DNA of 64,000 bases, from NCBI GenBank assembly GCA_047967505.1, contig CM106538.1. One strand, written 5' to 3'. A model generated the notes under the pieces. That model searched no databases and had not been told where the DNA came from. It saw only the letters and a list, made by a program, of their open reading frames with translations. The DNA comes from Dipteris shenzhenensis (lineage: Eukaryota). The translations under genes and the position numbers were made by a program. Every line of letters starts with the position of its first letter. Position 1 is the first letter of the stretch. Below, piece after piece: positions 522-64,000 of the stretch.

Positions 522-3500
522 TCGTTAAAAAATAAATAAAAATAAATGCCCACTTATATTGCTAGACAGGGGGAGGGGGAGTACCCCAATAAAACTCCCT
601 TAACACATAGGGGCAATGCCCTGACCACGCATTTCAATTGCGCCAAACATTGGCCTTCTAAAGATTGCGTGGACTCAAGGACCTTAGAGATGTCCACTAG
701 GGATGTCTTAATACCAGCCAATATGAGACCCTCAATGAACACTGACTCCCCAATATTTCAGAAGGCTAACTGATTCCTTACCAGCCAGATAGAGCAGCAA
801 ACCACACCCCTGATATACGGCCAACATGCCTTTAGGGTTGAGGGCAGCCCATGAGAGTCACCAAGCGGAACTAATTTCCAGTTGCTACCAATCTTGAACT
901 TGGTCATCAACCCCGATTTTCTAACAGCAGCCTCTATCTTACCCCAAATATTCCTAGACACCGAGCATCTCCACATCAGATGTTGAGTAGACTCAAAGGC
1001 CACTTCTAAACAATGGGCATTCAAGATTTACACAAATCCTTTTCGCTAATTTTGCTCTAACCGGTAACGACAGGTGGATCGGCTTCCATAAGATAAAGCT
1101 ATATTTACCACAACGACTACCACACCAAATCTCTTTAAATTTGGTTCTCCACCACCCGGCTGTTCTGCATAGACCCCATTTGGTATTTAAATCATATGCC
1201 ACCAACTGACCATTCATCAACCTCTTATATAGGGTCCTTGCCATAACTTTCCTTAACTGAACCTTTCCCACATACCACTGCAAGCCACGCCTATCCAAAA
1301 CAGTTGGAAGGCCAACTCTCAGGGATTGTTTTCAGGATTTGATGCATGAATGCAGTCTCTTGAACTGTCAAATGGAAGTTGCAGCTTATATCAACCAATG
1401 GGTACCGATCTCCCTTCCTGGGATTCCAAATCTAAAACCAACAGTGCAAACCTTCTTAAAGATACTTCTGGCAAGAGGCAAATTCAGACATGCTACCGGC
1501 TAGTTATTGAGCATCACCGCCTTACTCCACCAAATGGACTCATATAGGCTTGCATCCCCCTCAAGCCTTCGGAACATTTCCAACTGTATTTCCCTATAAT
1601 CATCTTCCAGGCTGATACTAAACCCCCAATCAAGTCAGAACCATTTATTTTCATTGGAAAATCAGAAAAGAGGCAATCATATGTGGTAAGACCTTTCCAA
1701 AACCCCACTAAGTTTGGGTTGTAACCATTCTCAAGGAACCACCTAGTCAACTCAATCCAAGGATCCACGTCTTTAAACATACGGGGGAGCCACTTATCTA
1801 TAAGAGAGACATTCTCGAGCGCCACATCCGAAAACCCTAGGCATCCTTGAAATTCAGCAGCTTTAAGCAGATTCCAGGGAATATAATGCATCCTGCACCG
1901 CCCATTATCCTCTGCCCAGAGAAAGGAGCGGAGTACCTTCTCTATTTCTAGCCACTAGCTATTACGAAAGTGCCATACCAATGCTAAGTAGGTGGTGCTT
2001 GCTGAAAGAGAATGCTTAATCACTAAAGCCCTTGCATTCCAGCCCAGCGGGAGCCAGCTTCTTAGTTTCGCTTTGATCCTATTATGAACCACTCAAAGCG
2101 TTGTTTCATTGTCACTCCAATGCCTAGCGGGGCACCTAGATATCTTACCACTTTACCATGCGGGATTATTTGAACTGGTAAGGCATTCATCCACTCCAGG
2201 ATATTGTCTTATGAAGACCTCATAGCATACGACTTCAGCCAACTACAAACTAAACCAGAAGCTTTATAGGAAATAGCAATAATATCCTCCAAAACATGAA
2301 AGGATGCCTGCTCCTCTTGGCTGAGAGCCACCAAATCATCAGCAAACATTTGGGTGCAGAATTGTCTACTTGAAGGTAGGACTAAACCTTTCAACCTACC
2401 AGCCTCCTTAGCCATATTGATACCATTCAGTAGCGGTATAGAAGCAAGGGCATATAAAAGGGGAGCTATAGGACATTCTTGCCAAATTGAATGTGTGAGA
2501 TTGAATGACCCAACTACCCCACCGTTGATGCAAAGAGCAGCCGAAGTAGAGCATACTTATCATTCTTAGGAATTCTTTCCCAAACCCAAGCCTTTCCATA
2601 ACACCAAGAATGAATTCCCAACACACATGGTTATACGCTTTGTCTAGGTCGAGCCCTAACAGAAGACACTTTTGACCAGCTGAATGGGCATAATCCAGAG
2701 CAGCACTAACATTCAGAATATTATAGAAAATATCACGACCCTTAACAAAACCCACTTGTTCTCTATCCACCACTTGCTTGCGTACCTCCCTGACTCTCAA
2801 TGCTAGGGCTTTAGCAATAATTTTATAAGAGGTATTTAGCATCGAGATAGGGTGTCAGTCCCCCACATGTAACCAATCTTGTCTCTTTGGAAATAGTTTC
2901 ACCAATCTTGTATTGGCATCCTGTGACAAAGACCCCTTGCAAGCCGAGGCATTAGCCATCTTCACAACATCTTCACAAGGTTACTGATACATCCAAAAAA
3001 CAGGCATAAAATTCTGTAGTAAGTCCATTTGAACCAGGACTTTTATCCCCTTTCATCTTAGACAGTGCCATTTTTAGTTCATCCAATGAAAAAGGAACAT
3101 CCAACTTCCTTCTCTAAACCTCAGAGACCCAGGGGTTTAAACCCTCTAAGCATTGAGCCATGTCTGTCTCCCAGTTGGAATCACAAGGCTCCCTTGCTCC
3201 TACTAAATTGCTAAGATGAGAGAGAAATATATTTGCAATGTGCCAAAATTCAGTTTCAACCTTACCCTCAGGTCCCATAATCCTATCAATTGTCTCCCGC
3301 TGCCTTTTCCTTTTAATTGCCTGGAAAAATAGTTTAGCTTTAACCATAGCTATCTACTATAGGTCCTTGCCTTAGAGGCCTCTTCCAACTCCCTACACTG
3401 GATTTCATGTTCTAATTCAATAAGTAGGGTCGATGAAAACTGATCTTCTCGATTTTCCCTCAAGACACCCATCAGAGAGTTCCTTACCCCAATGAGATCT

Positions 3501-4495
3501 TTGAATTTCCAGCAATTAGATCTCTCTCTCCTCTCCCAAGCCATAGCTTCCTTGACCACCAATCTAATGGAATAGTCCCACCTGGCACAAGGCTCTTCCA
3601 CTTGAGCATTGTCAGACCTCCAAATATTTCTGATATGGTTACAGAAAGCAGTAGAGGCTAGATATTTATTCTTTAGTTTGAAAGGCATGTCATAGGACTT
3701 GCCTACCCTAGAGGGAATGCAGAAACTCCAGAACAGTGGTAAGTGATCTGATAAACAAGTCGAAGTTATGTATCCCCCCCTCATAGGGGCATCCACCAAC
3801 CCTCTCCAGAAGCATACACCCTATCAAGCCTTCCCGATCTGTACTCCCCTCCTTTCCTTCTATTGCTCCAAGAGTGTCCTTCCAACTCACCTGGAGATAT
3901 CTCCGCACAATCTATTAACCCATGCTTCAAGCATAATTCCTCCCACATCTCCAGCTCCACAGTGTTGGAAGATCTCGAGGGCAGGGACCTATCTAAGTCT
4001 CCCTCCATAAAATTCCAATCTCCCACTATCAACCAATCATCAACAACCACAACTGTACTCAGCTCTACCCAACATTTCAAATGATCCCTGGGTGAGTTAC
4101 GAGCATAGACACAAAGGACATTAAAATGGAACCCATTGATCCCAACCTTAACATCAATGTACCAGCCCTCTTTACTTTTCGCCAATTCTTTGCCCTCCAA
4201 ATTATCCTTAATCAACACAGCTGAGCCTCCTTTACCACAGGCTAGACAATTGCAAAAGGTAGTGTATCCAAGCTTGTTCACCATGAACCAGTACTGATCG
4301 TGCTCCCCACATTGTAGTTCTTGTAAGCATACAACATCCGGGTTCACCTTCCTAATCACTTACAAGTATCCACTCTGTTTAGATTTCATTTCCTTTGTGA
4401 TGCATATCGAGCTATCGTGATCCTCCTCTGATGAATGGTAGACGAGATGATTTAAACTCGGTCAAGATGCTCTCTTGGAACATAAGGGGCTGCTG
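522..4495 (-). mobile_element. L1-type LINE, 5'-truncated and 5'-inverted, degenerate ORF2 (APE-RT-zf-RVT)
   Basis: Minus-strand ORF pieces: APE (PDVVCLQE, VYARN, IVGDWN, GRLDR, LSDHLP; 3350-4359), RT (LNTSYKIIAKALA, QVGFVKGR, LDLDKAY, FADD; 2209-2842) and C-terminal zf-RVT-like region (ESTQHLMWRC, SIWLVRN; 758-1298). A perfect 16-bp direct repeat TAAAATTTAAAGGCTT at 506-521 and 4496-4511 is the TSD. No long poly(A) tail is visible. Confidence 0.93.
4431..4495 (+). pseudogene. Inverted N-terminus of the LINE ORF2 endonuclease
   Basis: The + strand reads MNGRRDDLNSVKMLSWNIRGC, containing the SWNxRG motif that starts APE domains. It ends exactly at the TSD, while the rest of APE is on the - strand. 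Confidence 0.85.
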
Positions 4496-6408: not shown

Positions 6409-6950
6409 ATTTTGATGCATCAAGTTTTACTAAACGGTGTAAGAGGTCATAATAATCATTTAAATCATGCCTTGCCATTCGTTTTGATATGTAACATGAC
6501 CCCATTTGGATTTGTAAATCAAAAGATACAGGACATCAAAATTTTCATCTTTTGGACCAAAAGTGGTAGTGCGTTTAGGACATCAAAATTTTCATCTTTG
6601 GCCCAAAAGATGAAAATTTTGATGTCCTGTATCTTTTGATTTACAAATCCAAATAGGGTCATGTTACATATCACTTGTATCTTTTGATTTACAAATCCAA
6701 ATGGGATCATGTTACATATCAAAATGAATGGCAAGGCATGCATCTTAAATTCTCATCTTTTGGGCCAAAATAGGCATCGCGTTAACGTGCTCCCTCTTTT
6801 GGCCCAAAAGATGAGAATTTCGATGTCCTGTATCTTTTGATTTACAAATCCAAATGGGGTCATGTTACATATCAAAACGAATGGCAAGGCATGATTTAGA
6901 TTATTATCATGACCTTTTGCACCAATTAGTAAAACTCCATGCATCAAAAT
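6409..6950. repeat. Foldback/long inverted repeat with internal extra inverted copies
   Basis: Arm 6409-6563 is the near-perfect reverse complement of 6796-6950. Further partial copies lie at 6577-6740, and looser complementarity extends to about 6340/7020. The same peptide appears in ORFs on both strands (6412+, 6519-, 6753-). Confidence 0.88.
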
Positions 6951-7619
6951 GTGAATTTAATAAACAATTAGCCGGTTTCTTGCATCTGATGTAGAGGAAA
7001 GATTACCTAATATGGACCATGTCAATATGTTATCTATTTTGGCTTCTACCACCATTGATTTTTATAAGCAAAGATTGATTTGTTTTTGGAATTTAATTCA
7101 TTTTAAAGAAAGGGATGTACTTACTCTTTAGATTTTGTTGGATTGGTGGGATGTGAGAGTGATTCATTAGGGAGGGTTTTTTTGCAAATAGAAAAACATG
7201 GGTTTTGTTCCAAGAGTGAATAGAGTTTCAAAAACCAAGCATTTACACATGCATGCAATGTGGACTATTCCACTCAGAAGTCTTATGAAACTTTTGATTT
7301 GTGTGGAAGATTTCATTGGTGTTCTCACTTATGTTGGTGGAGAGAGAGAAAACTTGATTATAGAGGATTATAAAAAATTGAATGAGTAAAAGTGAGCGAA
7401 GATTGGGTGCATCGTTACTAATGATGCCTTGACAATGACATAGGTCCAACTCTCTCATGGATTTTTGAAGAAATTAGACAGCTGCTAAAATAAGGATTTG
7501 TCAATCTATTATTATTTTGTTTTGATTGTTTTTTAAAGCTCGCTCACTTTTCCTTGCTCACTTTTTTGGTTCGTTGACTTTTCCTCGCTCGCTTTTTGGT
7601 AATCTCAAAATTTCATTAA

Positions 7620-9897
7620 GTGTCTTTATATATGGCTCCTATATGCAGATGTTTTGCATGGTTCTCCTCAGGACTAGATGGGCTGGATATTTTGTCTTTC
7701 TCGTTGGGTGTTCTGGAGGTTGGGGTGAGTGCGTGCATTTTTTCTATTAGTCCATCGGATTCTGCTGTGCGTCCTTTTGTATGTGTGGGTTCTCTTGCAT
7801 CTATTGGCAGTGGTGCAGCGGGTGGTTTACGTGTTTCCTCAGGTGGTGTAGTGGGTTCTACAGATGTAGAGAGTGTTGGTGTTCCTTTTCTTCCATTGGA
7901 TGAGGATGAGGAGAGATTGGTTTTTGAGGTCGGTTGTAATCGTAGCTTGGCTAAGGATGAGTGGGCGAGGCGTAGGTTCGATATTTGGAGAAAGAATGGA
8001 TTTTATGACATTGTGATGATTGAGGAGCTCGAGATGCGTGAGTTGAATGAAATATTGAAAAGCTTCTTCTTGTAGGTTGTGAAATGGGACGGTTTGCTTT
8101 ATCCTCCTGAGTCCATTATGGGACTGTTTCATTGCTTTGATTAGATTTTGAGGCATGCTCAAGATGTGTGCATAGCATCTATGGGTGTGACTGAAGTCCC
8201 ATTTGATATTGTGAAGAATCCGATGTTTAAGGCTTCATAGAACGTGGTGGTGATTTTGATGAATCGGTCTGTTCAAAAGATTTCTTCAAATGAAAATGAG
8301 AAGGAGTGTGTTGTTGGTGTGGGAGAGGAGCTTAAGATCTTGGATGACATTGATTTCTCGATGTACCATCCTCGTGGTGTTCAAAGGAGATTTGCTTATT
8401 ATTGTCTCTCCAGATTTTGTATTCGAGGTGGCAAGGCGCTTCATTCTGTATTGAGATCTGATTTTCGTTCTGATACTAACTTGATTTTTTTTCTGCATGT
8501 CTGGTTGGTTTTGTTGGTATTGTAGTCCATGTTAGATTTTGTTTGTTGTGCATGTTTGGTTAGATTTTAGTTTCAGTGGTGTAATGCAGGTATAAACGAG
8601 AGGATGAGAAAAAACTATGTCGTGAGCTTAACTTGCTATCAGAAGAGCGATTTTCATCCTGGAGTCCGTGTTCACGAAGTTGATGTGGTTCGCACATATG
8701 TTCAGCTTGTATGGCATTTGCCTGCTATTGACGAGTCTTCTGCGAATTCCAAGTTCTTATTCTTACAAGTTATTGACAATTTTCGAACAAAGGTATGTTG
8801 TGTTGCATTTGTGTGTTTTGTTTGTGTTCTGATTTGAAAGTGTGTGCAGGTTTGATTCAATATTAATTGGGTGTCTGAGAAGTCCCTAAACAATCTTGTG
8901 CATTCTATGTTGGCCACGATTGGTGTTCGTGGTGTGAGGAGAATGAACAAGAGTATCAGGGTATTTACTGCTACTAGGCTGAGTCTGTGTCAGGTGCCCG
9001 AGGAGGTGGGTCAGCTCGATACTATGGACATAAAAGGCTTTTTCTTGAAACTTGTTATTGCTCAAAGTATCATCTCAAAGCCGTATGATGATTTTGGTGC
9101 ACTGAGGACCTATCCAAAGGTTCTTGAGAAGAATATGAGGGTCTGTTTGGAGAAGGTGGATGGGATTGTTTCTTGACATGTAGATGTAAATGTTTCAGGT
9201 TTGATCTGTAAAAATTCTGCAAAAGGTATGTGGTTTTATTTATGATGTTTTGATTCTTGTTTTTTTTCTTTTCGTTGATTTTGTGTTCAAATGTTTTAAT
9301 TTTATTTATGTTTTGCGGGTTTGGAGCTGGATGTTTCTATTGCTCCTGGTGCAATTGAGCATTGTGATGATCTTGATTTCTTTGGTAGGAATTCTTCTGG
9401 TGCGGTTGGTGGTGGGAATTTTCATGTTGATAATACTTGTATTGGCATTTCGGATGTTTGTGGTTCTCCTTCCCCTGTCGTTTTTGGAGGTGGTGGAATT
9501 GATCCGGGTGGCCACTGTTCCTGTTGCAGTTGCTACTGTTGTTGCTGCGGGTGGTCTTCGCGACGGTGGAGATCTAGCTAATGGTGCTATTGGTGATTCT
9601 GTAAAAAATGCCGATTATGGAGGGAAGTCTTCTACTTCTACGGAAGGTGTTGTTCCTGGTGGTGCTCTTCCTGCCGGTGTCGCTGCTGATGGACAAGTTT
9701 CTCTTGGTATTGGCATTCATGATTTCGATTATGGTGCTCTGTACAGTGGCGATGATTCGCAGATGCTGGACGAGTTATCTCATGTTTCACCAGTTGATGT
9801 TCGTGCTTTGGGACTTTCGTATCACGGCAGGCCTGTTGTTGTGTTGAATGGTGCAATTTTCAATAACTGCGTTGTGCAGTTCGTGAAGAAAGAATGA
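7620..9897 (+). pseudogene. Spliced, decayed DUF3504/Crypton-type tyrosine recombinase
   Basis: In-frame read-through of stops gives ELNEILKSFFL*VVKWDGLLYPPESIMGLF, FCIRGG (R at 8424), NERMRKNY, DVVRTY..LP, FLFLQ...TK|V*F across a phase-0 GT-AG intron (8793-8849), MNKSIRVFTATRL, a frameshifted GH (9026-9031) and a C-terminal GAIFNNCVVQF. This motif order matches DUF3504/Crypton YR proteins. The start position is approximate. Confidence 0.78.
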
Positions 9898-10156
9898 ACT
9901 GTGTGCTGCTTCTGTTGTTAGAATTTTGATGCCGTTTTTGTCTGACGACGAAGTTTTTTGGGATCAGATGGATGCCATGGGTTACCGGTTTAGCCTGTTA
10001 TTGTAAATATTTCTATATGGAATAAATTCTAAACTCTTGTAAATATATTTTGATGCAATAAAATGACTCATGGTTTGGCTGTATTTTCTATTTTTTTAAT
10101 TTTTTGTTTATTTATTTATTCATGAAATAAAGTGTGTAATTTAGTCGGTGATCATC

Positions 10157-11130
10157 TTATTTAAAATTACGTCTAAAGATGTTTTTAAATCGTATGGTTG
10201 AGATTAAAACTCCCGCGACCCCCGCCGTTGTTGACGGATTAGAAGAAGGCATTGAGTGGAGATTTGAGTTATGCTTGGACAACGAAGAATTGAATGTATG
10301 ACCACCGCATACGAATAGGTTAGCCAATACAATATTACCTTCATTCTTGGTTTTGTATGCTCCGCGAGCGTCGTCTGAAATCTTGGCCTTCCCTTTCTCT
10401 GAGGGCAACGTTGTTGCTTGGTTCTGAGAATCTTCGACTACATCTATAGCACCAGGTGCGATTTTAACGGGAGGAACAAACCAACGGAACCACTATGAGA
10501 ATCGGCCGGAATAAACAAAGAGAACATGAAAGCGAACAGCGTATTCAAACATAGGAAATGGAAAAATGACCCCGGTAACATGAAGTAGCTTCTTCAGCGC
10601 ATCCTGCTCGGCTATGCTCATCATGTCTATGAGCAACCAACAAAACCAAAAAACCAAACGCAAAACGTGAATATCGAAATGAAATTTGCAAAGAAAGCAA
10701 GCATGGAAACTAGAACCAATCGGTACCGTTTTCAAATTGCCCACTACTAGTGTCCATTGAATCTCCAAAGCCTTGCCGTTCTGAATTCGCGGATAACTCA
10801 TTCTCTTCGACATCGCCACCCATAATCAGGAACAGGACAAGGAAACTGTGTAGCGCTACCAACATATGAGGAAGCTGTACTAGTTCACGAAATGGACGAC
10901 ATCTTGTACCCCGTTTTTAGAATGGCATGTTGGAGGCGTTAAGGCACTAGACACCCACATAGTAATTGCAGCGTTGAACCATCCGCAACTTCATTACAGA
11001 AACAGAGCAACATTGTACACTGCCCCTGCTGAGGAAAGCACCGCTGGTAGAAGCGAAGAACATATTCTGGCCAAGCCCATGCTGAGATATGGAGAATGCC
11101 TTTCCCATCCGGCATCACCACGGCGAAAAT
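10157..11130 (-). pseudogene. Candidate spliced, decayed gene convergent with the recombinase; N-terminus weakly OB-fold-like
   Basis: Exon-like blocks with splice-like boundaries (MGGDVEENELSANSERQGFGDSMDTSSGQFEN|GT near 10725-10825; acceptor-like CTCATAG near 10495 and 10630). The upstream piece reads DGKGILHISAWAWPEYVLRFYQ, followed by frameshifted GAVYNVALF. Confidence 0.3.
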
Positions 11131-12599
11131 GAAGCAAGCAAGCATAAACGGTTGCAAAGAGCCTCTCCAACGAAAAAGCCAAGGTGGTGAAATGATGCAA
11201 GAGCATACAGCCAGGTTTGGTGCAGGGTCTTGGGAGGTTGGCACGTGCCGAGCCATGCATGGCGTGCGGACCTCACATTGCGTGGCCAACAGGTTGTGGG
11301 ATAGCCACCAAATGGAACCAATGGTAAAGAAAATCCAACTAAATTCTTTTTCATTCTTTAGTTGTGGCCTTCACTATGACCTGCACCCACGGCAGGCACC
11401 CACGGCAGGCCAAAAAGGGGGGTTAGTCCCACGTAAAACCTATACAAAATTTGGCTCGTGATGACAAGTGGCAAGCCTGGAGCCTATGCTGCAAATTGAT
11501 GTCATTCGAGGTACAAGCACGATTTGATTTCTAACAATGCCCTACTAACCACCGGATATGATCCAACTCATATCCCTTATGTTTGCACTGGTCTGGGCTA
11601 GGATAGCCGACTCTTTAGACACCGACTCTCGTTGTTGGTCAAATACCAATGGTTCCTGCTCTCCCAAATGGCCGCAATTTACTAGTTCTTAAGTGCTTAG
11701 TGTGTCTTCTCTAATCTTATTTTTGTATGATGAGTTAGTCTATGCAACTCTTGTGAATCTCCAAGTGATTTTTTTAAGAAATTTAAGTAAATTGTGTTTT
11801 ACAAATTGCCATTTATGAGATACCCTATCAAAAATTTAAGTAAGTACACTGCCAACTAGGCTACATGCAAGTGTGGGAAGGCATCCCATGACTAATCGCA
11901 CTGAGGGTAGATGGAGCATTTCCCGAGGCAGTCCACTCTCGAGTTGCGGGCCCATTTGGAGCCCCAAATGATCTCAGATGGAATGGAGACCATAGGTGTG
12001 TTGATCTATTTTGCACCATGGTTCTATCGTGTGGTCGGTGGCCTATTTCGGGGATGACCCCTAATCGGCCGTTTTGGGCGGACTGGGTTAGTTACCCAAT
12101 TGGGTCTAACCGACTACGACTAGTCGCTATATAAGAGCAAGCCCGTGAAGCCCATTTCATCACTGGTTACAGCAACCCTGATTCCTTAGCATCCAGCCTC
12201 CATCTTCTACTGTTTCTAGCACACCATCGAAGTTTCTCTCATAAGAGCGCACGGTTGGGAGGCAGCGCCATCTATTGTATCAGTTTTACAGTAATCAAAT
12301 TTTTTAGTCTCCATACTATCTACTTTTCTCTCTTGCATGTGAGATCCTGTTATCTGTTGAGCACAGACGTTGTATTATTTTCTTACATGATCTTGAATGT
12401 AGCATTTCTAACATCTTCTTGTAAGCACCCTTTTATTGTAATTGGGAGGATGAACTATCAAAGCAACAAAGATGTCATGTCAACAATACAACATAATCAT
12501 AATTATGCCAATGCATCACGATTATCGATACACTAATCCTACAGCTTAGAATACCTGTAAGACCTTGTGCCAATCATGGGACTTAAGCCCACTAAGCTT

Positions 12600-14680
12600 A
12601 TCGTTCTTTGAAAATGCTCCTTTCAAGCAACACATGTACCTAGTGGGTGTTTGAAAAGAGGCAATGTCTGCCTTGACCGCTACCTACTCCCTCGTAGAGA
12701 GGATCCACGTTGCTTTCGGGAGGATAACTTTTCCTGAAGTATGCACTTGGGGCCACAAACGAGACATCCGATTCATAGCACGCAAGTCTTCTCGCACTCC
12801 TCTCAAGTCTTTGGAACCAACCACAAGTGTGCCCAAATAGTAGCCCCCACATTCTTGAAGATATGCATGGGATCTAAAAGATGATTGATTTATAACTAAT
12901 TCGAATAAGGAAGCTCATGAAAGATCGATAGCCTCTTCATACCAAGAGGAGGTTCCTCTCCATTTGCCCTCCAAACCTGAATCCAGTCACTTGCCTTCAA
13001 ATATGATGGTGGTGGATCAAGCTGACCTCCACGCACGAGATGGGGTCTAGCAGAAGGTATCAAGCATGACCTTCATAAACATTTTTCCTCATATATTTGG
13101 AGTATCGTGCAAGCAATTTTAAACCCGGTCCACAAACAGGACAAGCATGGTACCCACTTGTAATAAGTCTTGCACGCGGCATGAATGTGTTAGTATAAGA
13201 CATGCGTGCGAAAGCATAATCCTATATTATACATGTAGAGACACAACCACGTACCTGCGCACTCTCCATATCCTGGGTAGTCATGCATGGTCCACATCAA
13301 GATACCCTTGACCAAAATATCATTGGTATGTCTAGGAGCTCTGGAAATATCAAAGACCTGCACTCCTCTCCATAATATATGTAACTCCTCTATCAAAGGT
13401 GCCATGTACACGTCCATATTTTTTGCCTTGTACTTCCCTGACACAAGTAGTGCAAGCATGAGGTGTCCCTTTTTTATTATTAGCCATGGTGGGATATTGT
13501 AATTCACCACGACTATGGGCCATGTTGAGCGTAACCCGAAAGGATTCACGCCGTCCATGGCGAGCCCAAGATGTAAGTTGTGTGGCTCCCTTGCAAAGTC
13601 TGGTTGTCTATGTGCTTCCAAGCTGTGCTTCCAAGCTGCACAATCTGCGAGAATCCTCAATGTGTCATCAGTGGACCGATGAGATGCATGCCATGTCATC
13701 AACTCCACTATGGATTTGCATCGGAACATGTGCTATATTCTTGCAATGATGGGAAAGTGTCTCAAGATCTTTACCGACCTGCAAGTCATCTCTATATCAT
13801 TGTTCCCCACATTTTGGACAACTAGCCAAATCTCCATGCTCACAATGAAAGAGAATACAGTCATTACGGCAAGCATGGATGGTATCATAATCCATACCCA
13901 CCGTTGTTAGCATCTTCTTTGCTTCATCTCTTGATGCGGCATGGTATTTGGTGCAAGCAACATCTTCTGAAGCAACCTATCACAATTCAAACATACATAG
14001 GCTTCGAATAATGATGATTCGGTACACTAATCCATACATGATGATTCTCAAAACAAACAATATCCAAATAATGAGTCAAATTAATGCAGGAGCTAACCTC
14101 ATTAAGGCTGAGACACTTGTATCTGACCACACATACTTTACTTGTAGATTCAAGATTGAGAGATAAGCATGTAGTTTAGACATCCTAACACCCTCGTACA
14201 ACTGTGTTGATTGCAACTCTCGCATTTTGACCTCAGACTCTGACATCACGTGTATATGGGATGTAGTGCCCCTAAAAATAGAATCCATCATGTACCCTCA
14301 TCATCATCCGAGAGACTATAGTCTTGCTCAAAGTGTAAAGATATATGTGTACCCTCGTCAGCCTCATCATCCTATTTTAAGATTTTGTGTAAATAGAAGA
14401 TCTTGTCTCAAGGTTTCATATCGTAATAGTATCCAATATTAACCACAAACTCAAATAGCTTTGTCTTACCGATAATCCATCAACATGTACAACACCAACA
14501 GTGGGTACTGGTTCGAGCTCCTCCCCATACATCCGTAAGTCGTGCATGATAATATGACATTGATGTCGTACTTCTCGCTTGCAATGAGTGCAATGATAAT
14601 ATAACCTCTTCGTAAGCCACTTTGTGCTCCTGAGCATTGGCACATCATCTGATGAGCTTCCACTCGTCTCTTCCATCTAC
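12600..14680 (-). mobile_element. CACTA (En/Spm) transposase remnant (Transposase_21/TnpD)
   Basis: ORF 13190-13729 carries MTWHA, FAREPHNLHLGLAMDGVNPF, STWPIVVVNYNIPPW, MDVYMAPLIEEL and MWTMHDYPG. Upstream pieces are QLYEG..SKL..WSDTS (14076-14291) and a Cys/His transposase-associated domain (14416-14676); a downstream exon reads GYHACPVC (about 13130-13165). Termini were not found. Confidence 0.92.
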
Positions 14681-14920: not shown

Positions 14921-15579
14921 CTGTGGGCTAAAACTCGAAACCCCGTGGCACGGCGCTTTCTTTAGCATCTCTATTGTGGGAAAAGCAATTTCTTCTCCCA
15001 CCTTATATCCGACGACCTCGCTTTCCTCCTCTCTATTCTCCACTCCTCACCACTACTCAACCCCTCTCCTAACACTTGTGCTTCCTCTCCACCCTTCTCC
15101 CTCTTTGCTTGTGTGAAAAGAAGTTTTTCAAGAAGATGAGTCTTTTTAAGCAATGTAGGTTCGTTTTTTGTGAGATTTCGTTTTGTGAGTGTTGAAGCAT
15201 GTTTCTCCTTGTATTGCTAAGGCTATGTGCTAGTTTTCATGCTTGATTTTCAAGGGTTAAAGACAAAAAACGAAATTTTGTGAAAGAAAGAAGACTCACC
15301 TCTTTTAGTCTTTTTTGTATTTCTCTTCCTCCTCTTTCTCCTTGTCTCCTCAATCCAATCCCTTTAAGAAGTTGCTTCTTTAAACTCCTCCTTCCTTTAA
15401 CTAGTTATTTGAAAAATGGTATGTTTCCTCTCTTTTGTAGGGCTAGTCCACAAAACACCGGAGCAGGACTATTCCAGGTAAGAAAGTGCTTTCTCTTTTT
15501 TCCTTTTGTTATTTTTGTTATTTGCATTGGTCTACAGCTAGCGCCTTAAGCACTAACTGTAGTGATGAGCATAGGAAGC

Positions 15580-17530
15580 CTCTCTTCCCCTATTCCCTCT
15601 TCTTTCCCTCTTTTCTCCTCTTCCTTCTCTTCTTTTTTCCTCTTCTTTTTTCCCTCTTTCAATATCTTTTCCCCTCTTCTTTTTCCCCCTCTTTCAATCT
15701 CTTTTTCCCTCCTTTTCTTTTCTTTTTTCCCTCTTTCAATCTCTTTTCCCCTCTTTCGATCTCTTTTTTCCTCCTTTCCTTCTCTTCTTTTTCCCCTCTT
15801 TCAATCTTTTTTCCTCTCTCTTTCCCCCCCTCTTTTCCCTCTTTCAATCTCTTTTCATAAGCATATGTATTTGCCTATGCTTATGCTGATGCATGAGCAT
15901 ATGCTCATATGCTCATGCATAAGCACAAGCTTATGCTTTCTCTCTTTTTCTTTTATGCTCATATGCTCATGCATAAGCATAAGCATATGCTTTCTTTCCT
16001 TTTCTCTTATGCTTATGCTCTTTTTCCCTCTTCTTTCTCTTATGCTTATGCTTATGCATGAGCATATGTCTCTTTCTCCTTCTCCTCTTTTCTTGTTTTC
16101 CTCTTTTCCTCTCTCTTTCCCCCCTCTTTCCCCTCTTTTAATCTATTTTCATAAGCATATGTATTTGCCTATGCTTAATCTTTCTCTCTTTTTCTTTTAT
16201 GCTTATATGCTCATGCATAAGCATAAGCATATGCTTTGTTTCCTTTCCCTCTTCTATCTCTTATGCTTATGCTTATGCATGAGCATATGTCTCCTTCTCC
16301 TTCTCCTTCTCCTCTTTTTCTCTTTTTCTCTCTCTTTCCCCCTCTCTTTTCCCTCTTTCAATCTCTTTTCATAAGCATATGTATTTGCCTATGCTTAAGC
16401 TTTCTCTCTTTTTCTTTTATGCTCATATGCTCATGCATAAGCATAAGCATATGCTTTCTTTGCTTTTTTCTTATGCTTATGCTCTTTCTCCCTCTTTCTT
16501 CTCTTATGCTTATGCTTATGCATGAGCATATGTCTCCTTCTCCTTCTCCTTTCCTTCTCTTCTTTTTCCCTCTCTTTTTCTCTTCTTGTCATAAGCATAT
16601 GCCTATGCATGTCCTTCTCCTTCTCCTTCTCCTTCTCCTTCTTTCTTCTTTCTCTTACGCTTATGCATAAGAATAAGCATATCCTTTCCTTCCCTTTCTC
16701 TTATGCTTATGCTCTTTTTCCCTCTTCCTTCTCTTATGCTTATGCTTATGCATGAGCATATGTCTCCTTCTCTCTTCCTTCTCTTATGCTTATGCATGAG
16801 CATATGTCTCCTTCTCCTCTCTCCCTCTCGTTCTCCTTCTCCTTCTCTTCTCCTCTCTCCCTCTCCTTCTCCTTCTCCTTTCCCTCTTTCAATCTCTTTT
16901 TCCCCTCTTCCTCCTTTTCTTCTCTCATGAGCATGTCTCATTTTTCTCTTTTCCTCTCTCTTTCTCCCCCTCTTCCCCCTTTTTCGATCTCTTTTCATAA
17001 GCATATGTATTTGCCTATGCTTAATCTTTCTCTCTTTTTCTTTTATGCTCATATGCTCATGCATAAGAATAAGCATATCCTTTCTCTCTTCTTTCTCTTA
17101 TGCTTATGCTCTTTTTCCCTCTTCTTTCTCTTATGCTTATGCATGAGCATATGTCTCCTTCTCCTCTTTTCCTCTCTCCTTCTCCTTCTCCTTCTCCTTC
17201 TCCTTCCCTTCTCTTCTTTTTTCCTCACTCTTTCTCTTCTTTTCATAAGCATATGCCTATGACTATGCCTATGCCTATGCATATCCTTCTCCTTTCCTTC
17301 TCTTCTTTTTCTCTTCTTTTCATAAGCATATGCCTATGCATGTCCTCCTTCTCCTTCTCCTTCTCCTCTCTTTCTCTTATTTTTTCCTCTCTTCTTTCTC
17401 TTCTCCTTCTCCTTCTCTCTTCTTTCTCTTCTTTTTTCCTCCTTCTCTCTTCTTTCTCTTCTCTCTTCCTCTCTTTTTGTCTTCTTTTCACAAGCATATG
17501 CCTATGCCTATGCCTACGCCTATGCTTATG
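15580..17530. repeat. Low-complexity satellite of CT-rich tracts and (CTTATG)n/GCATGAGCATATG modules
   Basis: Many copies of CTTATGCTTATGCATGAGCATATG and its near reverse complement CATATGCTCATGCATAAGCATAAG between polypyrimidine runs. Confidence 0.92.
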
Positions 17531-17574
17531 TTTGTTTTTTATTTCTTATTTTCGTGTTTGTGTCTATGTTAGAC

Positions 17575-17805
17575 ATGGGATCACATCGCACGTCCGATGA
17601 GTATGGATAGCCTCGCAGGAAGAGACATCACGATCTCTATTCTCCAGAGGACTTTGATTCCTCTCACGCGACACCTCAGGGGCCTACCCCTGTGACTACC
17701 CCTGGCCTGACTCCTCTCAGGCATAGCACTGTGACTACCCGTCGAGGAACTCCTTTGCTAGCAGCCCATGGCTTTGTCAAGAGTCCCGATGAGTTTGTAG
17801 CATAG
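17575..17805 (+). pseudogene. Possible 5' exon of a second, divergently oriented CACTA ORF
   Basis: ATG follows an acceptor-like TTAG; the frame reads MGSHRTSDEYG*PRRKRHH...TPLLAAHGFVKSPDEFVA with one internal TAG. A small exon-like block with AG/GT boundaries lies upstream at 15441-15477. Confidence 0.3.
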
Positions 17806-47699: not shown

Positions 47700-50600
47700 T
47701 GTTACGCTCTAGCCGAGGTAGCATGACCTCGGAAGAATCAGTCGACATTTCCCTTAAAGGATCTATCTCTGTAAAATATATGTTTGCGCTTCATGTAAAT
47801 GATCGGGAGGGATTTAATGTCAAGGTCCTAGGTGAGGGTTGATAGCACCAGACTAGGTGGATCTAAGGCTAAGGGCCTAATGCAAAGAATGTGCCTAGGG
47901 GCAAAGGATTTAATGCATCCCAAGAGAGGGGTGAAATGTTGCATTAGGAAGGCCCTATATGGATGACATGTGGCATCTAGATCCATCTAGGGAGATGGGG
48001 CTTGTTGAAGCTTGAGAGAGAAGAGAGTGTGGTTTTTCACGTATGTTTTGATTGGTAATTCTCTGTTTTGCTTGAAAGCTTCAACAAGGTTGGCTGGGTG
48101 GACGAACTCCGGTGCTGCTCCCGTGATCTGTAGTAGGAATAGTTGTATGTTGTGTGACATTTGGTATCAGAGCAGGTTGAGTGAGCAAGGGACGGGAGAC
48201 GTTTGTGAAGGGCCTGCGAGGGGACTTGGATCCCTGTAACGACGTGACGTGACCTTAGAAATAAGGTGACAGTTGGTATCATCACGCACGTTGACGAACT
48301 TGAAGGTTGGCTGGCCGACGAGCAGTAACGGGCTAATGGCGCATGCAAGCGCTCACAAGCTGGATGTTTGGCATCGCGGGAGCTATGTGATTGGCCCAAG
48401 GATCAGCCTTGGCCCGTCGCGTGGGCAGGGATTCATCTGAAGGTCGCGTGAGCTCGTGAAGGACCTGGTATGCACGTCGTCCGGGGCTTTGGCCAAAACT
48501 GTCGATGCACAGGTTGGTGGCTTGGAAGAGCGTAGCGGGAGTGCTGGTGGCGAATCACCCGAGGGTGACGACGAGAAGGCTGCCGACGAGGTCCGTGAGG
48601 AGCGGCGCTCACGTGGAGGGTTCTGAAGTGATGCAAGTGATTCGACGAAGATAGTCCGTGGGCTGGGAGATATTCGTCGACAGGAACGGATAGTTTAGGG
48701 CGACTGCAGCAAGGTGTTTCGTGGGTCTAACGGAGAATTTGATCGACGCTCATTGTCACATTTCTGCGTCTGTGATAAACAGTCCGTAGGTTGGCGTGGA
48801 CAGCACAATCTGAAGGATACGCGACACCAGAGAAGTCTTTTTACTCATGAGCAGGCAGTACGCAGAGGCTGCAGGATCCAGAGATACCGATTGGACGCAG
48901 AGGCGCAGGACTTAACCAGGGAGCTTTCTTTGATCTCCCTTAGCTTTGTGTTGTTTTTTTTTTTTTCTTCCTTAATTAGCTGGGTGACGCGCTACTTCCA
49001 TAGAAAGGACAGCATGCATGAGGTTTCAGCGTGGCAGTAAGGACGGGTTATGCCTGTGTGGTTCAGTTTGAGTTAATCTGCAGGAATCTCCCTAGTATAG
49101 GGAAAAGCGGGATTTGGATATATGCCTGTGTCAAATGCGTAGTTAGTGTGCATGTCAAATTGCAGGTATTCCCTAGTATAGGGAATTGTGTTCAGAGTGT
49201 TAGTACACTGAATTGTGTCAGCCTGTGATTACAGTGTTCTAGGGGTGTTGAAAAAAAAAAAAAAAAAAAAAAACCCCAAGACAAAACACCTATTGAATTA
49301 AATGGAAGCAGAAGAAGGGGCTTCCAGGAGGGACCCTGGTGAATCAGGAGTCCGGCCGACCCAGCAGGGATCGCGCCCAGTAGCTCATACTTTATCTGGC
49401 AGGATTGCATTGTTGGAGGATGCCTTGCAGCAGTTGTTAGCGCAGCAATTACAAGCCAATGCAGGGCAGTCCGAGCTTAGGAGAGTGATACATAGTATGT
49501 CTGCCAGACCTTCTCGAGAGGAAAAGGGAAAGGCCCCAATGGAACCGGAGTCTAGCGTTCATTCGAGCCTAGGAAGGCTAAAGTGCCGAATATTGCAAAT
49601 TACAGACCGGAGAAGTATTCTGGTCGGATGAACGACCGTAGCTCCGATGTCATTGAGACCTGGTTACACAAATGGGACGAGGCGCTCGCCATTTGTGAGA
49701 TCAGAAATGACATCAAAAAGATCCGCGAGGCCACCCATATGTTTAGTGAGGCAGCGGATCGGTGGTGGATTAAGCAACAAAAAGATGGCATAGCATCCAC
49801 TACCTGGGAGGGGTTTAAGAGAGAGTTCAGGAAACACTTCTTACCTCCTGACGAAGCATCCCGAGCTTGGGACCAATATAGGAACCTTCGTCAGAGAAAT
49901 TTATCAGTGGCAGAATACACTGATAAGTTTCGAGAGAGTGTAATGAAGGTTGACGAACCCCTGCCTCAATCAATCCAAGTGAAAGATTTCATATTTGGAT
50001 TGAATGACCGAATAAAAATGGAAGTTCGGGCTAAGTACGCGAACACGCTAGATGATGCAATAGCTATAGCCCTGAACTACGAGGATGCCAAGGGCAGCAA
50101 GCCAAGTGGGTTTGCACAGGTCGGAACCCAGTATGGGTATCCAAAAAAATCTGGGTTTAAGAAGAAGTGGGCTAGCAGAGGGAGTGGTTCGCAGCCGAGT
50201 GGTCAAGCCAAGCAGGCGAGACTGGCTGAAACTCCTAAACCAAGTACCACCATTGGAGTGAAGAGGAAAGTAACTCCAATGGCAGCCCGGGCTTGGTCTA
50301 AATCTCCCTTGAATCCAGAACAGCGGGAAAAAGCGAGGAGAGAAGGCTTATGCTTTGGTTGCCTTCAACCTCATCAGTGGAGAGATTGTCCACGTAATAA
50401 AGATGGTGATCTCAGAGTGCGACGTGGAGATGCAGGGAAGTCCCAGAGCGGAAGAAATGCAGATTCAGCTAGCGGGATCTTCTCAGAGGTTAGTACCTTG
50501 TTTGTTCTGTGTGTCTGTTACTAAGTTAGTGACGAGTGCACCTGATAACATCCTATCTAAGCCCGCAACAACGGGGTATACAGCCTTCAATGATACGGAG

Positions 50601-53600
50601 TTAATTAAAATGAAAGAGCAAGTGGCCAGTCATGATGTCATTGTGTTGTTTGACTCAGCGTCAACCCACAATGTGATTAACTCCAAGCTCGTGAAGAGGC
50701 TGAAACTAAAGACCAGTCCATCTGACTATGCGTACACAGTCAGGATGGCAGATGGAAGTTCAACTGAAGTATGGGACCAAAGGGTACCCAGTTAGAGCTT
50801 CGGATTCAGGACTATGCTGAGAAGCTTGATTTTGAAATAACCAAGCTTGCTCATGCGGATATAGCCCTGGGAATGGCGTGGCATTCTAGGAATATCAATT
50901 CAAGATGAATGATGTGCTTTATGTCTTGCGAGGTGAAAGAGATATACCTCAGGGACCGTTGGTCTCCGTGATGGAAATCAGAAAGGCTCAAGTAGAGTTT
51001 TTGTACCTTTGCACAGCATCGGTAGAGTCGATGGATGATTCTTCGACTAGCACTGATGTTACGCAAAGTGGTGAGATGGCCAAGCTGGCTAATCTTATAA
51101 CAGAGGAGTTCTCTGAATGTTTTAGGGATGAACTACCTTATGGGTTACCTCCAGAGCGGAAAGTTCAGCATAAGATTGAACTGATCCCGGGGGGCAGAAC
51201 CTGTAAATAGACCTCCCTATAGAATGAGTTTTACTGAAGAAGCGGAGGTGCGTAGACAATTGGAAGAATACCTCAAGTTGGGGCAGATTCAACCAAGTTT
51301 CTCACCTTTTGCTTCACCAGTGATATTAAAGAGGAAAAAGGATGATACGTTTCGCCTCTGTATAGATTACAGAGCATTAAATAATATCACTGTTAAACAC
51401 AGGTATCCGATGGCTCGGATTGATGATTTGCTAGATGCATTACATGGAGCCGTGATTTTCAGCAAGATAGATCTTAAGTGCGGCTATCATCAGATCCGGA
51501 TTAGAGCTGAGGATGTGCATAAAACCGCTTTTAGAAGCAGGTTTGGTCATTATGAGTTTTTGGTAATGCCCTTCGGACTTACCAATGCTCCAGCGACCTT
51601 CGTCATGCTTATGAACGATTTACTACGTCCGTATATCGGAAAGTTCGTAGTACATTTTATTGACGATATCCTAATATTCAGTAAAAGTGTTACTGAGCAT
51701 CGTGAACACTTAAGGATAGTGTTCAGTACTTTGACGAAAGCCAGTCTTTACGTGAATAAAAAGAAAACTATACTGTGTATGGTTAGGCTTGAGTATTTAG
51801 GGTTCATAATTACTCCACAGGGGGTAGAAATGGATCCGAAGAAAGTGGCTGCGATACTAACTTGGCCAATCCCTCAGAGTCTGACCGCGTTGCGATCATT
51901 CTTGGGATTTGTTCAGTTTTATAGAAGACATATCAAAGGATATTCCAGAATAGTATCGCCATTAACTGATCTGACCTCAGATAAAGTACCTTTTATTTGG
52001 GGACAGAATCAACAGGAAAGTTTTAACACCATAAAACAAGCTGTGGTCTCAGGACCCGTGTTAAAAATAGTTGATCCCCAGAAACCGTTGTTCCTAGAAA
52101 CCGATGCAAGTGGCATTGCGGTAGGAGCAGTCCTCCTTCAAGAGCGAAGGCCAGTAGCCTTTGAAAGCAAGAAGCTTTCTCCCTCTCAAAGGAATTGGCC
52201 AACTCATGAATTGGAGTTGTATGTTGTTATCCATGCTTTGAAAACATGGAGGCATTATCTGTATGCTTCAGAGTTTTATGTGGATGTGGATCATGATACT
52301 CTGAAACATTTTTGTAAACAGCCTGACTTGAGGGGCCGCCAAGCTAGGTGGGCAGAGCTCATGCAGGAGTTTAATCTAACGATTCGGTACCGAAGAGGAA
52401 AAGACAATAAGGTTGCTGATGCGTTGTCTCGCATTATGCACAACCTGAGTTTCACGGTATTAGAGAGTGCTCTAATGACTGAGATAAGAGAAACTCAAAA
52501 GGTGGACGAGTTTGTCCAGAGCTTATGGCCTAAGGCTCATGTGTTAAAACCCGGGGAAAGTCAAAAGGATGACCTGGCATCCAGAAAAGGCCAAACTTAT
52601 GCGAGATATACCATAAGGGATGGTATGCTAGTTAGAAATGGCAAGGTTGTACTACCTGGTCAGAATGATCTCAGGCAGAGAGTCATTCGACAATGCCATG
52701 ATAGCCCGTGTGCGGGACATCCAGGTGTCGAGAAGACCTATGATCTCGTGAAACAAGATTTCTTTTGGCCAAAGATGAAAAAGCATATTCATGAATATGT
52801 GACACGGTGTTTCTCGTGTCAGGTAAGTAAGGCCGAGCGGGTGAAGCCACCCGGACTTTTACAGCCCTTGGAAATACCACTAAGTAAGTGGGAGAGCATT
52901 TCCATGGATTTTATTGTAGGGCTACCTGCAACACAAGGAGGATATAATTCTATCCTTGTAGTGGTTGATCGTCTAACCAAGATGGCTCACTTCATTCCGA
53001 CTAGAGAGTCTGTTAGTGCCCCGCAAGTGGCGGATTTGTTCATTAGACATATATTTCGTCTGCATGGATTGCCTAAATCCATAGTGTCAGACAGAGATGT
53101 CAGATTTACCGGTCATTTTTGGACAGCGGTATTTGAGACACTAAGGACGGAGTTGGGGATGAGTAGTGGGGATCATCCTGAGACGGATGGTCAGACGGAG
53201 AGAGTCAACCAGACTTTAGAGGATATGCTGAGGGCATATGTGTCATTGAGGCAACATACATGGGACAATGGTTGCCATTGTTGGAGTTTGCCTACAATGA
53301 TAGGAAGCATTCATCTACTGGGTTCAGTCCGTTTGAGCTGAACTATGGTTATAGACCAGCCAATCCGACTATAGTTGGAGTACCTCAGAAAGTGCCTAGT
53401 GCCGCGAACTTTGTAGTTCAGATGCGGGAGATGCTAGCACTTGCGAGAGCTAATATCCGTCAGGCTATGGATAGAGCCAAGGTGTATGCGGATGAAAATC
53501 GGTCTATAAGAGTATTTGAAGAAGGAGAAAAAGTTTTTCTCAGAATTCCTTCGCACTCGAAGTCGTTGACTTCAGGAGAGTGTGCTAAATTATCACCTCG

Positions 53601-54424
53601 ATATTGTGGGCCGTGGTTAATTCTAAAGAGAATAGGCAGTGTAGCCTATAAATTAGAATTGCCACAGGGGTGTAAGGTGCACCCGGTTTTTCATGTTTCA
53701 CGTTTAAAGAAATTTTTACATACTGGTGACTCACTAATCGAAGGTGTGGTTTTGTTTCAGGAGATAGAGGATATTGCAAGACGCAAACCAACAAGAATCT
53801 TGGACCGAGGAACAATGCAAATACGAAATCGGAAGATACCCACGGTGTTGGTTGCATGGCATGGTCAGCCTCTATCCGAAGCTACCTGGGAATCCGTATA
53901 TCAGTTGCGGAGAGTGTTCCCAGACTTTATGATCGAGGACGCTGATGTCTGAAGAGGGAAGGAATGTTACGCTCTAGCCGAGGTAGCATGACCTCGGAAG
54001 AATCAGTCGACATTTCCCTTAAAGGATCTATCTCTGTAAAATATATGTTTGCGCTTCATGTAAATGATCGGGAGGGATTTAATGTCAAGGTCCTAGGTGA
54101 GGGTTGATAGCACCAGACTAGGTGGATCTAAGGCTAAGGGCCTAATGCAAAGAATGTGCCTAGGGGCAAAGGATTTAATGCATCCCAAGAGAGGGGTGAA
54201 ATGTTGCATTAGGAAGGCCCTATATGGATGACATGTGGCATCTAGATCCATCTAGGGAGATGGGGCTTGTTGAAGCTTGAGAGAGAAGAGAGAGTGGTTT
54301 TTCACGTATGTTCTGATTGGTAATTCTCTGTTTTGCTTGAAAGCTTCAACAAGGTTGGCTGGGTGGATGAACTCCGGTGCTGCTCCCGTGATCTGTAGTA
54401 GGAATAGTTGTATGTTGTGTGACA
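47700..54424 (+). mobile_element. Full-length, young Ty3/Gypsy chromovirus-type LTR retrotransposon
   Basis: 460-bp LTRs at 47700-48159 and 53965-54424 (TGTTAC...GTGACA, about 3 differences seen), TSD AATGG, PBS TGGTATCAGAGC at 48162, PPT GAAGAGGGAAGGAA at 53951. Confidence 0.97.
49302..53952 (+). pseudogene. gag-pol polyprotein (gag, CCHC, PR, RT, RNase H, INT, chromodomain), broken by several frameshifts
   Basis: ORFs 49302-49631, 49583-50524 (gag, CFGCLQPHQWRDC), 50355-50795 (LFDSAST), 50905-51210, 51224-53341 ([28 protein letters not shown]) and 53260-53952 (GPW; chromodomain ...LVAWHGQPLSEATWE). Confidence 0.95.
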
Positions 54425-62400: not shown

Positions 62401-64000
62401 AGGGCAGAGGCAACTGGGATTAAAGGAGAGTTCCCAGAACCAGTTAGCTCAATAAGTTTTCCCTGGTGGACAAACTGGATAGTATGGCTGCGAAAACTGA
62501 TTGATGGATCATAGTCGTAGAGCCACTGTTGTCCAAGTATGAGATCGTACCAAGAAAGAGGCATGATATCGAAGTTCAACTTGTCTGTATAATGTTGGAT
62601 GCGAAAAGACAAGTTTTTGATTCTGGTGTTGCACAAGAAGGTAGTTCCATTTGCGAGTTCAATCTGATAGTCCATGGAACGAGGACTGGTGGTCAACCGA
62701 AGTTTGTCGACCATAGAACTAGCTAGGAAGTTATGAGAGTAGCCACTGTCGATGAGGATAGTGACCGTTGTTCCACAAATCGATCCTTTAACACAAAGTA
62801 CTTGAGTGGCTAGGGAAGGTTCAGGGTTGCTGGCAAGGCTCATGTGGATGATATTTGCCATTCGAACAGCTTTGCCTTTCTTGTCTTGTGCTGGGGTAGC
62901 ATCTTCTGTTTGGGAAGTGCTAGGTTCCATATTGGAATTTTGCTTTGGTCGCTTGGGACAATCAAACCATAGATGGTCGCCTGTACAAAGTCCTTTTGTA
63001 CTGGAGTTATTCTTCTTGTCAGTGGCCGCACTTTATGTTGGGGATGACGGTGATGACTTTGTGAAGAAGAAGAGGCGCGATCCTTGGAGGAGTGCTTTTG
63101 TTGGAATCCAACATACGATTTCTGACACTGGTGGGGATCTTGAGACTGTCACTGACCTTGATTACCCGAGGTTTTTCTAAACTTGGGGTTATCTTGAGGG
63201 CGAGCACCTTTGGCCATAGTAGAGTTCTGTGTTCTATTAGCACTCTTCTTCCCGTGTTTTGAAAATCAGTAATGCGCTCTGCGTAAGCAATAGCGCCAGC
63301 TGTGGTGATGATGTTTGCTTTGAGGACATCAATGCGTAACGAGGGATTTAGGCCTGAGATGAAAGCATGAAGGCGATCATCATCAGTTAAACCATCAATC
63401 TCCAGCACCATTGTGGTGAACTGAGAGATGTAGGAAGACAGGGAGTCTGGTTGCTCCAACTATCCAAGTTTTGAACGTGCTTGGAAGTTCGCATTGGCAG
63501 GTATGAATTGCTTACGGAGCACGTGTTCAAAACGTTCCCAGGTTAACACACTTTTGCCGTCCTTTAAGCGTCGTTGCCACCATAGGAAAGCTGTATCCTT
63601 GAGGAGGGAGGCTGCCAAGGCCATCTTTTTGCCTTCAGTGAGGTCAACAGTATCAAAGTACATGCACAGTTTTGCGAGCCATTGGTCAACTGTTCGGCGA
63701 TTTCGTTGACCAGTGTAGGCTTTCGGAAGTTTAATGTCAAGTCTTTTAGTTTTGGAAGCTTGGAGTAAACAGTAGAGGGCACGGAGCTCAGTGTTTTCTA
63801 CCTTTGGTGGGAATGAGTCCACATAGTCGTTTGGTTGCGTCACGTCATCCTCTGTATGTGTGGTACTGCGAGAATCTTGGAGTTGTTGGACTTTCTGGAC
63901 CAAGTCGGAGATGCTGTCCTGAAGCTTGGAAATTTGAAGTTGAAGTAGTGCTTCGCCTTGTAAGTTGACTTCAAGGGTCTTTTTTAGACTTGAGTCGCTT
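59477..64000 (-). mobile_element. Ty3/Gypsy element inserted in the Copia RT, running off the window end
   Basis: gag 63019-63903, PR (ILIDSG) 62049-62930, RT ([14 protein letters not shown] in place of YLDD) 61295-62095, RNase H/INT 59769-61298, GPF and partial chromodomain 59503-59835, LTR-like end ...CTTACA at 59477. Confidence 0.95.

Follow-up and report, generated by a model that had tools for sequence, protein, structure and literature searches.

What is a tyrosine recombinase gene doing in the genome of a land plant? The question is raised by a locus on the + strand of a 64-kb stretch of Dipteris shenzhenensis DNA, referred to here as the window, whose numbering is used for all positions. 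Tyrosine-recombinase elements are regarded as rare or absent in land plants, and Cryptons, the transposon group concerned here, are called rare in the part of a review that we drew on. An earlier note, made from the sequence alone, had described the locus as a dead, intron-containing tyrosine recombinase gene of the Crypton/DUF3504 type, and the stops, indels and profile homology reported below bear this description out. The window locus itself is a dead relic, of value because it draws attention to a clade of Crypton-type recombinases in plants and to apparent domestications within that clade. The probable explanation, in our view, is that a Crypton-type (DUF3504-related) recombinase gene has left a decayed copy here; we infer that its family is, or was, mobile and that the copy is a transposon relic.

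Homologues of the window gene

The read-through translation of the locus, with X at each stop, was used as a phmmer query against 1.84 billion representative proteins, and returned 97 matches at E ≤ 1e-3, of which 41 reached ≤ 1e-10 and nine ≤ 1e-30. The top match has an E value of 5.2e-61 at 44% identity, and the matched proteins are about 570-820 residues long. Because there are 97 matches, the best of them at this level, the homology cannot be attributed to chance. Thirty match clusters were looked up; 19 are assigned to a named organism, in every case a non-seed land plant, and the other 11 derive from records without a name. The ferns are represented by Adiantum capillus-veneris and A. 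nelumboides, the lycophytes by Selaginella moellendorffii and Diphasiastrum complanatum, the liverworts by Marchantia polymorpha, M. paleacea, Riccia sorocarpa and Calypogeia fissa, and the mosses by Ceratodon purpureus and Physcomitrium patens.

In a maximum-likelihood tree of 39 rows, consisting of the window copy and 38 of the longer or named proteins, the window copy falls in an 11-row clade with Adiantum sequences (Shimodaira-Hasegawa-like approximate likelihood ratio test, SH-aLRT, 96) at the end of a long terminal branch of 1.08. The land-plant setting proposed earlier for the gene is upheld by these fern relatives, which are the closest in the tree, and by the plant-like window, rich in transposable elements (TEs), in which the gene lies. 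The locus belongs to a recombinase family of ferns, lycophytes, liverworts and mosses and sits in a fern-like clade of that family. A word-indexed homologue search with part of exon 1 scored none of its 134 candidates, and the same type of search with alignment A1 found 13 proteins only. Some gene models among the homologues (P0005, P0032 and P0024) join the recombinase to pentatricopeptide repeats or to a piece of reverse transcriptase, and these joins are probably annotation fusions with neighbouring genes.

Relationship to Crypton and DUF3504 recombinases

The relationship to DUF3504 was traced through the homologues and their profiles. Pfam searches of 21 long matches gave one DUF3504 match below the cut-off and two weak Phage_integrase matches. 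Among the 102 members of alignment A2, at E ≤ 0.1, DUF3504 was the commonest domain (15 members; best E 6.6e-16), with the QRICH1 domain found in 10 and Phage_integrase in 4. The DUF3504 (PF12012) cut-off was passed by P0083 (59.2 bits), by P0089 from Riccia (31.7 bits) and by P0080 (30.1 bits), and the window itself matches these three proteins at E values of 9e-5 to 2.9e-4 in phmmer; its similarity to DUF3504 is in this sense indirect. The QRICH1-like N-domain corresponds to PF25561, all 10 matches to which lie below the cut-off (best 28.4 bits), and a profile match places this domain at 7887-8240 of the window.

A further comparison was made by hhalign between A3, a profile built from eight plant members whose catalytic set is intact, and P0142, a canonical protein of the non-plant type that scores 113.6 bits for DUF3504, 36.3 for Phage_integrase and 28.7 for QRICH1. 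The two align over 326 columns with a probability of 99.2% and an E value of 1.6e-19. All catalytic motifs are in register, IRGG being paired with LRGG, SKNY with SKNR, NKS.R with NHSLR and TGHK..Y with TGHR..Y, and the alignment covers residues 30-108 of P0142, the site of its QRICH1 match. Similarly, the nearest named protein Atlas clusters of the homologue P0010 are Phage_integrase/DUF3504/QRICH1 proteins of Cnidaria and Mollusca (score 0.98). On this sequence-profile evidence the plant family can be assigned to the Crypton/DUF3504 superfamily by a link that is indirect but strong.

Among known elements the plant family most invites comparison with CryptonA. As described in the sections of PMC3212892 that we used, CryptonA elements have a single recombinase gene without a reverse transcriptase, in which introns are possible, and in their protein a QRICH1-like N-domain precedes the DUF3504/Phage_integrase catalytic domain; the plant family is alike in these respects, and all catalytic motifs align. 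The plant clade differs in having KxxR in place of HxxR, in that most of its members fall under the Pfam DUF3504 cut-off, and in that no termini are known for it. The hosts also differ, being land plants in the one case and, as far as species are named in those sections of PMC3212892, animals, fungi, oomycetes and a diatom in the other. Another point of comparison is provided by the Glomhoppers, DUF3504-encoding CryptonA elements described in 2026 from the Glomeromycota, which are mycorrhizal fungi (PMC13465315, cited here from part of its text). Like the plant family, the Glomhoppers have a DUF3504-type recombinase and occur as intron-containing and intronless copies, and their hosts are symbionts of bryophytes and vascular plants; however, Glomhoppers are elements of fungi, and the authors who described them assign them to the diversity of animal CryptonA (PMC13465315).

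DIRS and Ngaro elements likewise encode a tyrosine recombinase. They carry in addition a reverse transcriptase and RNase H together with characteristic repeats. In contrast, neither reverse transcriptase nor RNase H was found beside the window gene in the lists of open reading frames (ORFs) for 6500-11000 or in nearby ORFs of at least 150 aa, of which those in 3353-4359 and 10160-13732 were scanned against Pfam, and the nearest reverse transcriptases, over 40 kb from the gene, belong to gypsy and copia elements. In the part of Kojima and Jurka 2011 (PMC3212892) consulted, the DIRS and Ngaro recombinases are said not to match DUF3504 at all, and the portion of the Penium genome preprint that we used describes land plants as being without DIRS and Ngaro. 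The ALOG domain of plant developmental regulators has been traced to DIRS1-like retroposons, and differs from the present family in having no catalytic domain, according to the text of Iyer and Aravind 2012 (PMC3537659) in so far as it was available to us. The Atlas neighbour list of P0010 includes, at rank 12, a cluster that combines ALOG with Phage_integrase.

Structure and decay of the gene

The coding pieces from 7632 to 9225 all lie in a single + strand frame (position mod 3 = 0), and the last exon lies in a different one. Exon 1 (7632..8498, with a putative start codon and exon end) would encode the N-terminal region and the QRICH1-like N-domain and runs through IRGG. Its frame translates as FFL*VVKWDGLLYPPES at 8064-8114, the asterisk being a stop, and as IRGG at 8421-8432, where codon 8424-8426 specifies the first catalytic Arg. 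This exon is supported by tblastn alignments of P0004 and five other homologues, which begin at 7887, and by the match of profile positions 110-306. Intron 1 (8499..8576; GT..AG, 78 nt, phase 0, T-rich) coincides with a gap in the tblastn and profile alignments, where profile positions 307-317 are unmatched, and the boundaries given are one consistent choice. Exon 2 (8577..8792), which follows from the tblastn and profile alignments, contains ERMRKN at 8598-8615 with the catalytic Lys at codon 8610-8612, an HFRP-like stretch, and FLFLQ, the first part of a motif FLFLQ...RTKV*F that spans the next intron.

That intron (intron 2, 8793..8849; GT..AG, 57 nt, phase 0) is the one that had been proposed in the earlier note. 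It leaves the frame unchanged because 57 is a multiple of 3, and its removal drops 19 junk codons, including a TGA at 8835, after which the sequence is collinear with the homologues (RT.[VA]W[FY]). Both its GT..AG ends and this collinearity speak for it. Exon 3 (8850..9225) contains NKSIR at 8946-8960 (Lys 8949-8951, Arg 8958-8960), a GH motif at 9026-9031 that is readable in another frame only, and the deletion of the Tyr segment described below. A putative intron 3 (9226..9388; GT..AG, 163 nt, phase 1) was placed from the change of frame to the ORF 9205-9897, and has the donor AAAG|GTATGT in common with intron 2 (direct repeat D15). Exon 4 (9389..9897), whose frame is uncertain upstream of about 9590, would consist of a low-complexity linker and a C-terminal FNNC (9859-9870) before the stop at 9895-9897. 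It is collinear with the C-terminus of P0006 in a weak match (E 0.013) and gave no match to P0018; a C-terminal '.NC' motif is present in 8 of the 22 rows of alignment A1.

All three interruptions have GT..AG ends and a T-rich, C-poor composition. Six homologous proteins align by tblastn to 7887-9224 (best E 1.7e-71) with gaps exactly at the first two introns, and the window frame scores 311.6 bits against the profile of the eight intact homologues, over positions 110-306 and 318-494 of its 614. The ordered motifs claimed earlier for a single spliced frame were each located where they had been placed.

The exons hold five in-frame stops. The TAG at 8073..8075 replaces a Gln of non-fern homologues (FF.QV), and the TAG at 8238..8240 a Gln of fern homologues (FK.TQN), while the TAG at 8142..8144 stands at an Arg of the homologues and is more than one base change from any Arg codon. 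The TGA at 8853..8855 corresponds to Trp in the homologues, and a second TGA lies at 9174..9176, also in exon 3. Two extra bases (about 9024-9025) after VPEEVGQLDT and before GH make GHKR (9026-9037) legible in another frame only. By comparison with P0006, about 26 nt have been lost after GHKR (about 9038-9053), and the frame resumes at VIAQSIISKPYDD. Intact homologues have 14 codons in the gap that follows GHKR, the catalytic Tyr among them, in agreement with the earlier proposal that the Tyr segment was lost after the GH frameshift. The window copy retains R, K, K (for H) and R, its His is out of frame and its Tyr is deleted, and it lacks the full R-K-H-R-H/W-Y set. With five stops, an out-of-frame His and no Tyr, the window locus is a pseudogene incapable of recombinase function, and the five stops and two indels leave it without the intact, conserved reading frame that is the mark of a domesticated DUF3504 host gene. 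Decay has been moderate, since the family consensus residue is still kept at 108 of 154 well-conserved columns (70%).

A lysine in the HxxR motif of the plant clade

The active site of the family was tabulated for 70 proteins of at least 300 aa aligned to the profile. A complete set of R (IRGG), K (SKNY), K-x-x-R (NKS.R), H (TGHK) and Y (RYD) is present in 10 of the 70, and the fern-clade members P0005, P0007 and P0008 retain the whole set. Where the first His of HxxR would stand, 31 of the proteins have a residue, which is Lys in 22, Arg in 4, Ser in 3, Tyr in 1, and His only in P0142; Lys is found there in all 10 proteins whose catalytic set is otherwise complete. The Lys at this position in NKSIR had been taken in the earlier note for a peculiarity of the dead copy, which is not tenable with these counts. 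As judged from the alignment, the plant clade as a whole has Lys for His in HxxR, so that this residue does not reflect damage to the window copy; it can serve as a signature of that clade because Lys occupies the position in 22 of 31 proteins and His only in P0142.

Type IB topoisomerases have Lys at the matching position, as KxxR, and the substitution need not abolish catalysis. Intact members of the plant family would consist of an N-terminal QRICH1-like DNA-binding domain followed by a catalytic domain with R, K, K-x-x-R, H and Y. If it acts as other tyrosine recombinases do, an intact member would cut DNA through a 3'-phosphotyrosine link and then rejoin it. Cryptons are thought to excise as a circle and to reinsert by site-specific recombination.

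Transposon copy or host gene

A transposon origin of the window copy is plausible on comparative grounds, which come from the fern clade. In Adiantum capillus-veneris the proteins P0004, P0101 and P0102 are 98.5-98.7% identical and are encoded on three chromosome-size contigs, and the gene models of this species number six or more and are spread over no fewer than five contigs. Dispersed, near-identical copies suggest TE-like behaviour in a relative and would lend indirect support to mobility of the family. The complete catalytic set kept by several fern members points the same way, as does the position of the locus among LINE, CACTA, gypsy and copia remains.

Several results weigh against the reading of the locus as a relic of a mobile, Crypton-type element. 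The GH..Y segment is missing from all three near-identical Adiantum copies, be this a real loss or a fault of the gene models. A self-search found no second copy of the gene within the 64-kb window, and no terminal repeats bracketing the gene were found in the window repeat searches, a single decayed copy being unable to show its ends. Two metagenome scans for DNA of relatives, with profile A3 and then with P0103, gave no confirmed case. At the level of the protein, profile A1 had six matches among solved structures, none of them a recombinase, and the broader profile A4 had only non-significant ones to the integrase 3nkh (E 0.11) and to QRICH1 (9hjt; E 0.18). The check by Pfam and profiles that the earlier note had proposed gave a divided answer: Pfam returned nothing relevant for any of the four pieces of the window gene itself (0/4), and DUF3504 was reached with the homologues and profiles. 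Finally, the family is not purely mobile, since it includes relatives that resemble host genes and no longer have all catalytic residues.

These relatives are of three kinds. The proteins of Marchantia polymorpha and M. paleacea (P0012, P0105, P0106) come from a single locus and form one cluster at ≥90%; their catalytic positions read R-K-R-R-T-Y, a degenerate set, and they have an insert after the Lys motif. Lycophyte relatives from Selaginella, Diphasiastrum and unnamed records (P0044, P0045, P0048, P0051, P0108, P0127) form a clade with SH-aLRT 100, have in common an extra N-terminal domain of about 300 residues, and have lost all catalytic residues. The Selaginella and Diphasiastrum genes are annotated with multiple isoforms, those of Selaginella with several at four loci. 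An XRCC4/XLF-like reading of the lycophyte N-terminal domain was considered and set aside as a weak lead, the Atlas scores being at most 0.86 and without Pfam support. In Physcomitrium patens, P0064 and P0145 have a Coilin_N domain (47-48 bits) fused to a recombinase-like region with degenerate catalytic positions. The lycophyte and Marchantia relatives look like candidate domesticated genes, and the Physcomitrium fusion likewise has the look of a domesticated one.

The same pattern is shown by the animal DUF3504 domesticates ZMYM2/3/4, QRICH1, KCTD1, KIAA1958 and WOC, which, in the passages of PMC3212892 used here, have lost catalytic residues and become fused to other domains. The fern clade and the window copy differ from these in that they keep, or recently kept, the catalytic residues, and the window copy is broken, not conserved. 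The earlier note had allowed that a conserved host gene at a single locus would speak against a transposon. Such genes do exist, in Marchantia, in Selaginella/Diphasiastrum and in Physcomitrium, but all of them fall outside the clade of the window copy.

The existence of these relatives with host-gene traits gives substance to the alternative that the window copy is no transposon copy but arose as a paralogue of a non-mobile host gene, domesticated from a Crypton, and then became a pseudogene, and the introns kept by the window copy and its match to the consensus at 108 of 154 conserved columns can be read the same way. We nevertheless judge this unlikely. In the tree the window copy belongs to the fern clade (SH-aLRT 96), a clade that has members with a whole catalytic set (P0005, P0007, P0008) and that includes the near-identical dispersed copies. 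The window copy also retains R, K and K-x-x-R, residues no longer present in the domesticated clades.

Capture by a larger mobile element, for example a CACTA element or a retroelement, would make the position of the gene uninformative on mobility driven by its own recombinase. A CACTA Transposase_21 fragment does lie downstream at 13193-13732 on the - strand (Pfam E 2.1e-38), a LINE (long interspersed nuclear element)-type endonuclease lies at 3784-4359, also on the - strand, and a foldback repeat (6409-6950) is close upstream of the gene. However, a search of the first 32 kb of the window found no pair of long repeats, direct or inverted, on either side of 7000-10100, and the gene runs from its N-terminal motif to its stop with its own introns and is therefore not a fragment; this alternative appears very improbable. 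That the locus is a working gene, its stops and frameshift being assembly errors or bypassed, is hardly credible even with 70% of the conserved columns retained and three of the five stops being TAG, since the stops number five and are of two kinds, the Tyr segment has been deleted by two compensating indels, the terminal branch is long (1.08) and nothing points to a variant code in a land plant.

Taking the window gene as a decayed copy of a Crypton-type recombinase gene, we would tentatively propose that non-seed land plants have their own long-lived, KxxR-marked Crypton-type lineage, recently active in ferns and domesticated at least three times (in a lycophyte, in Marchantia and in the moss Coilin fusion). 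If this is true, land plants do harbour mobile elements of the tyrosine-recombinase type, and the domestications parallel those of ZMYM and QRICH1 in animals. A plant clade with intact catalytic sets and with near-identical, dispersed copies in a fern would extend plant TE catalogues by one class of transposon and would account for stretches that are now unannotated, while Marchantia, Physcomitrium and Selaginella would offer testable plant cases of recombinase domestication. A full-text search found no published description of this land-plant family, with Repbase, Dfam and subscription journals outside its scope. Databases already recognise the family in part, since the Marchantia protein is named 'DUF3504 domain-containing protein' in one UniRef record.

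Surroundings and base composition of the gene

Besides the LINE endonuclease and the CACTA fragment, the remains of TEs around the gene that give the window its plant-like and TE-rich character include a gypsy element with long open frames (49556-53952, +), a copia-like gag-integrase (56943-58987, +) and a second gypsy-like polymerase (59769-63032, -). The best protein identities of the window gypsy polymerase are about 55%, to mixed streptophytes. Rfam and tRNA scans gave no matches, and promoter- and terminator-like matches were not above shuffle expectation.

The gene region itself (7200-10500, + strand) has a strong excess of G+T, with A.204, C.140, G.278 and T.378. Third codon positions in the gene have T.417 and G.317, and the introns have T.50-.54 and C.05-.09. 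Among 309 sliding windows of 2278 nt, skews of G over C and of T over A both exceed 0.25 in six, and all six overlap the gene. Decay by C-to-T deamination was considered as the cause of the G+T excess and rejected, there being no clear excess of C>T among single-step changes at the 154 conserved columns (C>T 3.5, G>A 3.0, A>G 3.3, T>C 2.0).

The foldback structure upstream of the gene resembles a miniature inverted-repeat transposable element; its arms at 6409-6592 and 6767-6950 are 184 nt long and 87% complementary, and it has internal repeats of 48 nt. Farther downstream, a pyrimidine-rich (C+T) low-complexity block occupies 15500-17600 and includes an array with a 220-nt period at 15929-16777, and the 4 kb that follow the block are purine-rich.

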